NCBI GenBank assembly: GCA_963765495.1
Contig: CAVXWP010000001.1
Location: 1,056,001 to 1,120,000 of the forward strand
DNA: 64,000 bases
Direction of reading: 5' to 3'
Source of the DNA: Blastocatellia bacterium
GTDB lineage: Bacteria > Acidobacteriota > Blastocatellia > UBA7656
Shown here: in pieces, positions 18,152 to 18,875 of the stretch
Numbering within the stretch: the first letter of the stretch is position 1
Layout of the letters: the number at the start of each line of letters is the position of its first letter
Made by a program: the position numbers and the translations under genes
The notes under the pieces: model-generated
Told to the model about the DNA's origin: nothing
Databases searched by the model: none
What the model saw: only the letters and a program-made list of their open reading frames with translations

Positions 18152-18234
18152 TGAATAAGAGAGAAGTTGGAACGGTTAAGACGCGAGTAATGTAATACGC
18201 CCGGCAGGACTCGAACCTGCGACCTACGGATTAG

Positions 18235-18831
18235 CTTCCAGCATCACGTTTCCGTGACCTCCCTCATCGGGGTTGCTGGCTGGACCATTTCTTCGCCATT
18301 TCAGGCGGCGGGCGTATGGCCTCTACGCATCCCTTCATCCAAGGTTTGCTCGGAGTTGTCGTAGGAGGTGTACTCCCTTACGAGATTCTCCGAAATAGCC
18401 CGCTCCAGTTCTGCGGTTTTACCGAGGATTTGCAGTCTTTGAGAGAATTTGCCTCTGCACCGGGCAGAACAACAGGTAAAGGCAGTGCCTTTTTGCAAAA
18501 AGGTTTGACCTTTTCTTCTCTCGAAGATCAGACCACATTCCGGGCATTTCAAAACAACCATTTTTCGTCCGTGTTCGAAGTGATGTTTGCGAACGTGTTC
18601 GCCGTTGTTCATCACCTCAAGGTTTTCAATCCGGTTGTCTTTCTTATCCCGGTTTTTATGGTGCACAACTTCATCGGGATTGAGAAGCCTGCCAAGGTGA
18701 TTCTCGACTACGACTCTATGTTCCAGCACATAGCCATTAGCAGAAGCCTGCGGATGTCCAGAAACAAGAGCGTAGTTGTAATCTCCCTTGTGGATGATCT
18801 TCTCAATCTTCCACACAGAACGCTCCTATTG
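18235..18831 (-). ncRNA. Group I self-splicing intron (597 nt) in the tRNA-Arg anticodon
   Basis: 5' exon ends in U and the intron ends in G. P1 U.G pair, P3 GCGGGC/GCCCGC, P4 UCGGAG/CUCCGA, P7 GGCCAU/AUGGUC, P8 CGCC/GGCG, P9 CCAGCA/UGCUGG with UCACG-GAAA-CGUGA. Confidence 0.88.
18301..18816 (-). CDS. Intron-encoded HNH homing endonuclease with C-terminal Zn-finger
   Basis: [13 protein letters not shown]...[22 protein letters not shown] and CCSARC; AGGAG 6 nt before GTG. Confidence 0.88.
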
Positions 18832-18875
18832 AAGTCCGTTGCTCTATCCATCTGAGCTACGGGCGCAAAATAAAA

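Follow-up and report, generated by a model that had tools for sequence, protein, structure and literature searches.

A probably mobile group I intron with an HNH gene in the tRNA-Arg(UCU) gene of a Blastocatellia bacterium

How does a bacterium that uses AGA codons read them when default tRNA finding gives it no gene for tRNA-Arg(UCU)? This question was raised by the genome of a soil bacterium of the Blastocatellia (7.3 Mb in 17 contigs, 97.9% complete, GC 53.7%), of which we analyzed a stretch of 64,000 nucleotides (nt), hereafter the window (GenBank assembly GCA_963765495.1, contig CAVXWP010000001.1, positions 1,056,001 to 1,120,000 of the forward strand). The gene content of the genome also points to Acidobacteriota: 53 full-length ADOP genes scored above the cut-off, and the lack of any Photo_RC family speaks against a cyanobacterium, while searches for PSD1 and Por_Secre_tail matched nothing even in the controls and so carry no information. 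An earlier look at the letters of the window (the original prediction) had proposed that a tRNA-Arg(UCU) gene on it is split by a group I intron that carries an HNH endonuclease. Judged from sequence comparison, it is very probable that the insert is a mobile, IC3-like group I intron of the tRNA type, located in the only tRNA-Arg(UCU) gene of the genome and carrying an HNH homing gene in its P2 element. The object itself is solid and the surprise moderate; the story at the level of its family is the more interesting one.

The tRNA-Arg(UCU) gene is split in the anticodon

The two halves of the gene and the tRNA gene before it are arranged as follows.

18876..18952, minus strand: tRNA-Pro(UGG), called by ARAGORN and matched by the Rfam tRNA model with 67 bits; 9 nt upstream of the split tRNA-Arg
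18832..18866, minus strand: exon 1 of tRNA-Arg(UCU), 35 nt, with the 5ʹ strand of the acceptor stem, the D arm, the 5ʹ strand of the anticodon stem and C32 U33 U34
18235..18831, minus strand: predicted group I intron, 597 nt, with the 5ʹ splice site after U34 and omega-G at 18235
18196..18234, minus strand: exon 2, 39 nt, with C35 U36 A37 A38, the 3ʹ strand of the anticodon stem, the variable loop, the T arm, the 3ʹ strand of the acceptor stem and discriminator A; CCA is not encoded

The insert follows U34 and ends in G (18831..18235). When the exons were joined by script, ARAGORN called a tRNA-Arg(tct) of 74 nt with a complete cloverleaf and a 7/7 acceptor stem, and with introns allowed ARAGORN called a tRNA-Arg(tct) with a 597-nt intron on the window itself. 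The coordinates, the distance between the halves and the U| and G| junctions are those that had been proposed. The splice position was set at 34/35 because the U(-1)/omega-G rule is satisfied there; splicing at 35/36 would give an identical product. With default settings, ARAGORN found a single tRNA gene on the 64-kb window, the tRNA-Pro(UGG), and the same tRNA-Pro was the single match of Rfam at gathering thresholds over the whole window. Standard annotation misses the split tRNA-Arg(UCU) gene, as the original prediction had expected.

The genome depends on this gene as far as its assembled sequence goes. None of its 49 uninterrupted tRNA genes, as found by default, has the anticodon UCU, UAA or GUU, so that the search for another tRNA-Arg(UCU), which had been suggested as a check, returned none. 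In 1327 long open reading frames (ORFs), the frequency of AGA is 7.3 per 1000 codons, and 10.9% of the arginine codons are AGA. The other arginine tRNAs of the genome have the anticodons ACG, CCG (two genes), CCU and UCG, which by the wobble rules are not expected to read AGA. With AGA in use and no other UCU gene, the intron must therefore splice efficiently, barring a gene in unassembled sequence.

The insert has the defining anatomy of a group I intron

The curated Rfam model of group I introns, Intron_gpI (RF00028), failed on the window, and the link to group I was therefore drawn through relatives. We built a covariance model, R1, of the core from P3 to P7' (138 positions, 25 pairs) from nine ORF-less relatives, leaving the window out. 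R1 matched the window at 18407..18273 on the minus strand with 104.9 bits (E 1e-20), and all 25 pairs were canonical. P3 (GCGGGC/GCCCGC), P7 (GGCCA/UGGUC) and P8 (CGCC/GGCG) of the window are unlike those of all nine training sequences and still pair. The second match on the window (31496..31659, 11.5 bits, E 0.59) is noise. R1 also matched the tRNA-Leu(UAA) intron of the same genome with 56.4 bits. The connection to the curated family came from one ORF-less relative, L009: searched alone as a stretch of 326 nt, it aligned to Intron_gpI over the full length with 35.8 bits (E 9.3e-8), a score below the cut-off of 50, and the alignment put J6/7-P7 (GUAGAGACUA) and J8/7-P7' (AAGAUAUAGUCC) in their expected places.

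The helices were then examined by comparison. For the nine ORF-less introns, a hand-drawn structure from P1 to P9 with the P3/P7 pseudoknot was tested at 52 pairs: 94.9% of 468 cells were paired and 24 pairs were changed on both sides, while 33-42% of cells paired in a control in which the 3ʹ partners were slid by 1-3 columns. The observed covariation score was reached by none of 500 shuffles. In the cores of the window and 12 HNH-bearing introns from metagenomes, 99.2% of cells were paired and 14 of 30 pairs were compensatory, in an alignment that was fitted to the model and thus leans towards the structure. Compensatory pairs were seen in P3 (5/6 in the ORF-less alignment and 4/6 in the HNH-bearing cores), P7 (2/5, ORF-less) and P8 (3/4). 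The long-range helix of P9 with its GNRA-capped hairpin was paired in 99.2% of cells across 13 sequences, with 7 of 10 pairs compensatory. In the window, 5/5 pairs of P7 and 10/10 pairs of P9 were canonical.

The elements of the ribozyme, all on the minus strand, are these.

18823..18834: P1, exon CUU and intron C1 against GGAG with an AAUA loop; pairs conserved in nine relatives
18828..18826 with 18234..18232: P10, UAG against CUA of exon 2; pairing possible by sequence
18814..18821: P2, 5ʹ strand, GUUCUGUG; holds the GUG start codon (18816..18814) of the HNH ORF
18408..18415: P2, 3ʹ strand, CGCAGAAC; inside the ORF (codons T-A-E-L) and directly before J2/3, UGGA
18273..18407: catalytic core, matched by R1 over positions 1-138 of 138
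18403..18398 with 18313..18308: P3, followed by J3/4
18393..18388 with 18355..18350: P4
18383..18359: P5
18349..18327: P6, followed by J6/7, GUAGAG
18321..18317 with 18287..18283: P7, forming a pseudoknot with P3
18307..18294: P8, with the stop codon UGA (18303..18301) of the ORF in its loop; J8/7 is AAGAAA
18236..18279: P9 region, with the long-range helix CCAGC (18279..18275) with GCUGG (18242..18238)
18272..18258: hairpin inside the P9 helix (P9a), drawn by eye; inconsistently aligned in the tail alignment and left out of the pair counts
18257..18244: GAAA-capped hairpin inside the P9 helix

P1 and P10 can both be read in the sequence as they had been drawn, and the proposed P3, P4, P7, P8 and P9 were recovered by the comparison of relatives. 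The internal guide GGAG is 18826..18823, and U34 pairs with G 18825 as a wobble; this U-G pair at the 5ʹ splice site was found in 9/9 relatives. Omega-G is the last nucleotide of the intron, and G stands before CUAA in 12/12 aligned tails from metagenomes. In the periphery, P2 is present and P5abc is absent. P2 of the window has 8 contiguous pairs (18821..18814 with 18415..18408); in an ungapped scan of 14 HNH-bearing introns, 8-9 contiguous pairs of differing sequence were found in 9 and shorter runs in the rest, one of which came from a wrong GGAGC. With the P4-P6 stack, J6/7 GUAGAG, J8/7 AAGA(U/A)A, the U-G pair and omega-G all in place, the insert has, as read from its sequence, the defining anatomy of a group I intron.

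The HNH gene is woven into the ribozyme

The insert contains one long ORF.

18301..18816, minus strand: ORF of the putative HNH homing endonuclease, 171 codons plus UGA, GUG start; the only long ORF of the intron
18720..18589, minus strand: HNH_3 domain (PF13392), residues 33-76
about residues 89-130 of the same ORF, minus strand: Cys4 zinc-ribbon-like segment, with a weak match to Zn_ribbon_recom (E 0.033)

The ORF product matched Pfam HNH_3 with 44.1 bits, above the curated cut-off of 24.8 (E 1.5e-11), so that the HNH assignment of the original prediction stands. H52, H53, N61, N65, H74 and H78 were invariant in an alignment of 27 sequences. The AlphaFold2 model built on this alignment had a mean confidence (pLDDT) of 85.1 and was structured up to a strand at 145-150; a helix at 135-142 and this strand lay in blocks of pLDDT 88-89, values that conservation of the columns at the RNA level may have inflated, and residues 154-171 were below 50. 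The best Foldseek match was I-HmuI (PDB 1u3e), which was weak (E 0.069, TM 0.33, 17% identity). Among about 5.8 billion proteins, 912 of 1003 candidates were homologues at E<=0.001, and the best, three metagenome proteins, were 77-79% identical over 100% of the length. A scan of genome contigs with the single protein gave 26 loci, in which the match was limited to the HNH motif region of distant proteins.

The gene is located in P2, and from 18415 on it overlaps the ribozyme core. At its start, AGGAG (18827..18823), which is the guide plus one A, precedes the GUG by 6 nt, the standard spacing of a Shine-Dalgarno sequence. Since pairing with CUU requires a GGAG-like guide, any intron at this site brings a ribosome-binding site beside P2, and this ready-made site may be the reason why the HNH gene settled there. 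At its other end, the frame continues past P2' through P3, J3/4, P4, P5, P4', P6, J6/7, P7 and P3' to the UGA in the P8 loop. Three conserved blocks of the 27 aligned proteins are translated ribozyme: AIS(E/G)N(L/I)V.E(Y/F) is P3-J3/4-P4-J4/5-P5, DN(S/P)E(Q/E)T is J5/4-P4'-P6, and GMRRGHTP is P6'-J6/7-P7. The first block stands near the C-terminus in 117 of the 120 best homologues. By eye, the frame ends within P6 in 10 of the 27 sequences, about as in the window in 14 and further on in 3.

In 79 of the 120 best homologues the Trp of a WKI motif is residue 2, and their start therefore lies within P2; most of the others have an N-terminal extension that begins in the P1 loop and reads the guide as Gly-Ala. 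In free-standing homologues, which have no R1 match, the AISEN-like block is retained and the protein stops 8-10 residues further on. Our reading of these data and of the structure model is that residues up to about 150 are the protein proper and that the last 20 or so result from reading on through constrained RNA. Some 17 functional codons (18417..18367, residues 134-150) would then double as P2', P3, J3/4, P4, J4/5 and the 5ʹ half of P5, and the remaining 21, from P5-P7 to the stop in L8, are probably a dispensable tail. Four homologues (P0005, P0006, P0008 and P0009) read P4'-P6 in another frame (KTPSKP in place of DNSEQT) and return to GMRR(G/D)HTP at J6/7.

The same site is interrupted in relatives

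In a DNA search of the family, the tRNA-Arg(UCU) gene was split at the same place in 16 of 53 genomes, the window's included; this count rests on reading which matches extend past the exons, and 40 related genomes were also searched. In the other family genomes checked, the halves abut and the gene is uninterrupted. The recurrence of the split in relatives and the covariation of the helices argue that the split tRNA is not a product of chance.

The introns of this site differ in cargo. ORF-less introns, 214-259 nt long, are found in seven members of the family. A LAGLIDADG ORF is found in P6 of L010 (tested) and L011, and a PDDEXK_5 ORF in P6 of L013 and L014 (tested, E 1e-38 to 1e-40) and, by sequence likeness, of L016 and L060. 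Counting the HNH gene in P2 of the window, this intron lineage has, at this one site, endonuclease genes of three families in two different loops. In one other family of the class, the genomes G037 (L020) and G033 (L021) have ORF-less introns whose lengths are 214 and 302 nt and whose cores are similar; the U/G rule places these after U36 (CUUCU|...G|AA), two bases from the family site and at 36/37, the position of the classical Arg(CCU) intron.

The arrangement recurs in metagenomes and in predicted phage

A full-length HNH homologue was found with an R1 match in 13 loci of metagenome contigs (L080-L090, L093 and L096). The match had 98-121 bits in 12 of them, and L093, truncated by the end of its contig, scored 64.6 bits; the R1 match overlaps the 3ʹ end of the ORF in every case. 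In IMG/VR, 16 loci (L164-L177, L179 and L180) have a full-length homologue together with an R1 match of 99-119 bits, many of them inside arrays of tRNA genes. The candidate exons of these loci were joined by script at U|...G| and the product was typed by ARAGORN. Including the window and leaving out L093, tRNA-Arg(tct) with one anticodon base in exon 1 was obtained in 27 of 29 loci; among complete loci, tRNA-Arg(UCU) split at 34/35 was found in 11/12 from metagenomes and 15/15 from viral contigs. The two failures were L089, which gave no tRNA and has CUU| and G|CUAA junctions by eye, and L179, which is cut by the contig end. The arrangement was not found in named phages among deposited phage genomes at E<=1e-15, where one distant HNH match was seen (42% identity over 73% of the query).

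Some homologues are not in an intron at all. Free-standing copies adjoin an uninterrupted tRNA-Arg(tct) gene in three metagenome loci (L091, L092 and L098) and six viral ones (L178, L181-L184 and L191). Their position fits an enzyme lineage that targets this gene and also the 'collaborative homing' route to mobile introns.

In one more locus, L094 (from 1048 onward), a free-standing homologue has behind it a stretch that resembles a tRNA, contains a CUUCUAA loop and was not called by ARAGORN. The L094 DNA for the AISEN block is nearly the same as J3/4-P4 of the window (GCUAUUUC(A/G)GA(A/G)AAU), and one may speculate that microhomology of this type helped the gene to enter the intron. Other intron-like elements were seen in the same set of contigs: one near the Arg intron at L171:475-595 (R1 88 bits), one inside a split tRNA-Leu(taa) at L084:2077-2252 (R1 41 bits), and a putative tRNA-Leu(caa) with a 761-nt insert called by ARAGORN at L165:1983-2834.

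Sequencing runs

RNA run X20 contained two contigs that join 18233 to 18831 and so skip 597 nt, the source organism of which is not assignable, and one contig 94% like 18269..18413. In six RNA runs, only 4-5% of the words were present. At 90% likeness in metagenomes, such RNA contigs may derive from tRNA genes or introns of other organisms, and because they are unassignable they are no evidence of splicing or expression here. One soil DNA run contained pieces identical to 18228..18475 and 18499..18663; this run may be the source sample and hence not independent.

Alternative explanations

Several observations weigh against a mobile, splicing group I intron with a homing gene. Intron_gpI did not match the whole window at the gathering score, nor 1.3 kb around the insert or the last 251 nt of the insert at E<=10, nor the loci of eight relatives in a 24.5-kb search at E<=1, and the score of L009 was below the cut-off. 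The original prediction had itself named the lack of a covariance-model hit and of a spliced product as grounds for giving the claim up, and with Rfam's model on the window the first of these is formally what was found. The three RNA runs inspected contained no spliced product assignable to this organism, and with 17 contigs at 97.9% completeness the assembly could have missed a second Arg(UCU) gene. That the IMG/VR contigs are viral is itself a prediction, the confidence at residues 134-150 of the HNH protein may be too high, and we infer its endonuclease activity, its target site, the control of its translation and the donor of the element.

As to the Rfam result, none of the seed sequences of the Rfam group I model is bacterial (10.1101/2020.01.27.920355), and the miss on the window is a problem of sensitivity. 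The claim of a group I intron with an HNH gene at 34/35 of Arg(UCU) is carried by the relatives and by HNH_3, not by Intron_gpI on the window itself. If the insert were instead a free-standing HNH cassette or a ribozyme of another class sitting in the anticodon loop, the failure of the curated model would be explained; we give this hardly any weight, as ORF-less relatives without the cassette share the core, the P3/P7 pseudoknot, P4-P6 stack, J6/7, J8/7, U-G pair and omega-G are present and covary, and one relative aligns to Intron_gpI over its full length. A dead tRNA pseudogene that does not splice, with some other decoder, or a gene missing from the assembly, reading AGA, is somewhat easier to imagine and still very improbable. 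Splicing was not seen, the window has no Rfam group I match and the assembly is in pieces; however, the canonical pairs of the core, P7 and P9 (25/25, 5/5 and 10/10), the perfect cloverleaf of the joined exons, the share of AGA among arginine codons and, by the established wobble rules, the lack of another arginine tRNA expected to read it all speak for a working gene.

The rival that deserves most attention concerns the protein. The intron might splice while its HNH product is no longer a homing endonuclease, being either a decaying passenger or kept as a splicing helper (maturase). The absence of the gene from the other family and phylum genomes sampled would agree with this if no intron-less targets were left, the C-terminal 18 residues are predicted to be disordered, and RNA constraints alone could keep open part of a frame so entangled with the core. 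Yet the ORF is intact over its 171 codons, its product keeps the six His/Asn residues that do not vary among the 27 aligned sequences, three metagenome proteins match it over the full length with 77-79% identity, and AlphaFold2 was confident up to residue 150; HNH_3 proteins are not known to act as maturases. We regard this alternative as unlikely, and an intron that splices and carries a homing gene as the better account.

Proposed mechanism and origin of the intron

If the insert is such an intron, it would work as follows. The Pro-Arg precursor would be transcribed and its intron would fold into P1-P9. An external guanosine would attack after U34, at the wobble of P1; P10 would align exon 2, and omega-G (18235) would be displaced as the exons are ligated to a normal tRNA that reads AGA. 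In the folded precursor, P1 would hide the Shine-Dalgarno sequence and P2 the start codon, keeping ribosomes off the core before splicing. As translation would unfold the core, splicing and translation would be mutually exclusive on one molecule, and the release of exon 1 would free the sequence that is both guide and Shine-Dalgarno, so that the excised intron is likely the mRNA. The HNH enzyme would most likely cut intron-less tRNA-Arg(UCU) genes and so drive homing.

The distribution of the gene and the exon sequences suggest how the element came to the chromosome. At E<=1e-25, a search of 400 further genomes from the phylum did not find the HNH gene; in the 52 other family genomes at E<=1e-10, the search gave none save a partial 49% match elsewhere in G015. 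Compared with family members, the acceptor stem and T arm of the exons are identical, as is the D arm save one base of the D loop; the other 7 differences from L015 are found in the anticodon stem and where the variable loop begins, no more than about 12 nt from the insertion. Differences so near the insertion are what homing would be expected to leave if exon sequence beside the intron were co-converted, a phenomenon described in a review (PMC3984707). The element probably entered the chromosome horizontally, and a phage tRNA array is a plausible donor by the sequences at hand.

A wider reading joins these points, and we advance it tentatively, rating it as a whole possible but doubtful. It holds that a large undescribed lineage of Arg(UCU) introns lives mainly in phage tRNA arrays, with the window as a chromosomal member; that HNH gene and ribozyme share nucleotides and the release of the exon switches on translation; that the site was colonized independently by HNH (in P2), LAGLIDADG and PD-(D/E)XK (in P6) enzymes; that the free-standing HNH genes are the pre-invasion stage of 'collaborative homing'; and that, with these, group I introns would be known from phage tRNA genes for the first time.

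Relation to known introns

Bacterial tRNA introns belong to subgroup IC3, and their four classical settings (Leu.3Ug, Arg.5Ug, fMet.2Ug and Ile2.5Ug) were extended to 21 by tFind (10.1101/2020.01.27.920355). The window intron resembles the classical ones: these are small, sit in the anticodon loop, have a short P1 in which loop nucleotides take part, and share U(-1), omega-G and P2-P9 without P5abc. The tRNA-Leu(UAA) intron also follows position 34, and R1 cross-matches the copy in this genome. In contrast to the classical Arg intron, which follows position 36 of Arg(CCU), that of the window lies at 34/35 of Arg(UCU); it further differs from the classical introns in its HNH ORF in P2 and in escaping Intron_gpI of Rfam. 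The tFind catalogue (Williams 2020) deals with objects of the same type, found like ours with ARAGORN allowing introns and a covariance model, and in its nomenclature the window intron would be 'Arg.3Ug'. The preprint found many introns in metagenomic assemblies and did not analyze intron ORFs (10.1101/2020.01.27.920355). In view of these many introns, Arg(UCU) 34/35 may well be among its 21 settings already.

The main texts of the literature searched described no Arg(UCU) group I intron, no HNH gene in a bacterial tRNA intron, no group I intron in a phage tRNA, and no overlap of guide with Shine-Dalgarno or of core with ORF. The novelty that had been suspected for an Arg(UCU) intron with an HNH gene is therefore kept in part: no description was found, but the site itself may be in the 2020 catalogue. 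The 'group I introns' that PMC5733544 reports for cyanobacterial tRNA-Arg(ACG), Gly and Lys measure 22-49 nt; they are too short for group I ribozymes and have no bearing here.

Two endonuclease introns are the closest comparisons. The tRNA-fMet intron of Synechocystis reportedly encodes I-Ssp6803I, a PD-(D/E)XK enzyme, in work by Bonocora and Shub in 2001. It is likewise a bacterial group I intron of a tRNA anticodon loop that encodes a homing endonuclease, and relatives of the window intron (L013, L014, L016 and L060) carry PDDEXK_5 ORFs; the enzyme of the window, in contrast, is HNH, lies in P2 and not P6, and overlaps the core. I-HmuI (PDB 1u3e), the weak best match of Foldseek, is an HNH/His-Me finger homing endonuclease of a group I intron. 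Its intron is located in a protein-coding gene, and the window protein differs in having a Cys4 ribbon in place of the C-terminal domains of I-HmuI.

Hausner et al. 2014 (PMC3984707) treat intron ORFs that reach the core of the ribozyme, and also 'collaborative homing', in which the endonuclease is free-standing. As in those cases, core helices are overlapped here and expression must be reconciled with folding, and free-standing homologues stand beside an uninterrupted target gene. In comparison with the ORFs in that review, the overlap found here spans P2' through P7 and P8 and is conserved across hundreds of homologues, and the internal guide doubles as a Shine-Dalgarno sequence. According to the same review, all phage introns known by 2014 were in protein-coding genes, whereas predicted viral contigs carry the present intron in tRNA genes (PMC3984707).

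Should the IMG/VR contigs prove to be viral, tRNA introns are carried by phage tRNA arrays, which probably spread them into host chromosomes; by the account of the 2014 review, no such introns had been seen in phage (PMC3984707). The overlap of ORF and ribozyme is a natural case in which the same nucleotides serve a protein fold and a catalytic RNA fold at once, and it offers a testable switch in which splicing would unmask the ribosome-binding site. The site also provides a comparative series for the assembly of mobile introns, with ORF-less introns, three endonuclease families in two loops, and free-standing relatives next to the uninterrupted target gene.

Other split tRNA genes and neighboring genes

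Two further tRNA genes of the genome are interrupted. The tRNA-Leu(UAA) gene (L001/L161, G000:C12:68327-68642) is split by the 229-nt ORF-less insert that R1 matched with 56.4 bits; this insert had no Rfam match in a 10-kb search at E<=1. The tRNA-Asn(GUU) gene (L003, G000:C6:42000-43900) is apparently split at C6:42435-43402 by an 893-nt insert with an Intron_gpI score of 35.2 bits (E 4.4e-6), below the cut-off, and a LAGLIDADG_2 ORF (E 5e-34); no uninterrupted tRNA-Asn gene was found in the genome. Three isoacceptors, Arg(UCU), Leu(UAA) and Asn(GUU), are present in this genome only as intron-containing genes, and default tRNA finders leave it without all three, which are present but split. 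Five other intron calls of ARAGORN, Thr(cgt) i440, Arg(ccg) i330, Arg(tcg) i254, Asn i189 and Asn i482, are likely false, because they had neither an Rfam group I match (E<=1) nor an R1 match.

On the window, tRNA-Pro and the split tRNA-Arg are probably one transcription unit, since the Pro-Arg order recurs in relatives (tRNA-Pro is upstream of the split gene also in L008, L010, L011 and L014-L017). A tyrosine recombinase gene (19126..20253, plus strand; Phage_integrase, E 7e-31, with a SAM-like domain) starts 174 nt past the 5ʹ end of tRNA-Pro and may be the sign of an integrated element on the right-hand side of the two tRNA genes. On the other side, just downstream of tRNA-Arg and starting 45 nt after it, a gene on the minus strand (16871..18151) encodes a two-domain protein of the PLD family (PLDc_2, E 1.6e-45), which is cardiolipin-synthase-like.

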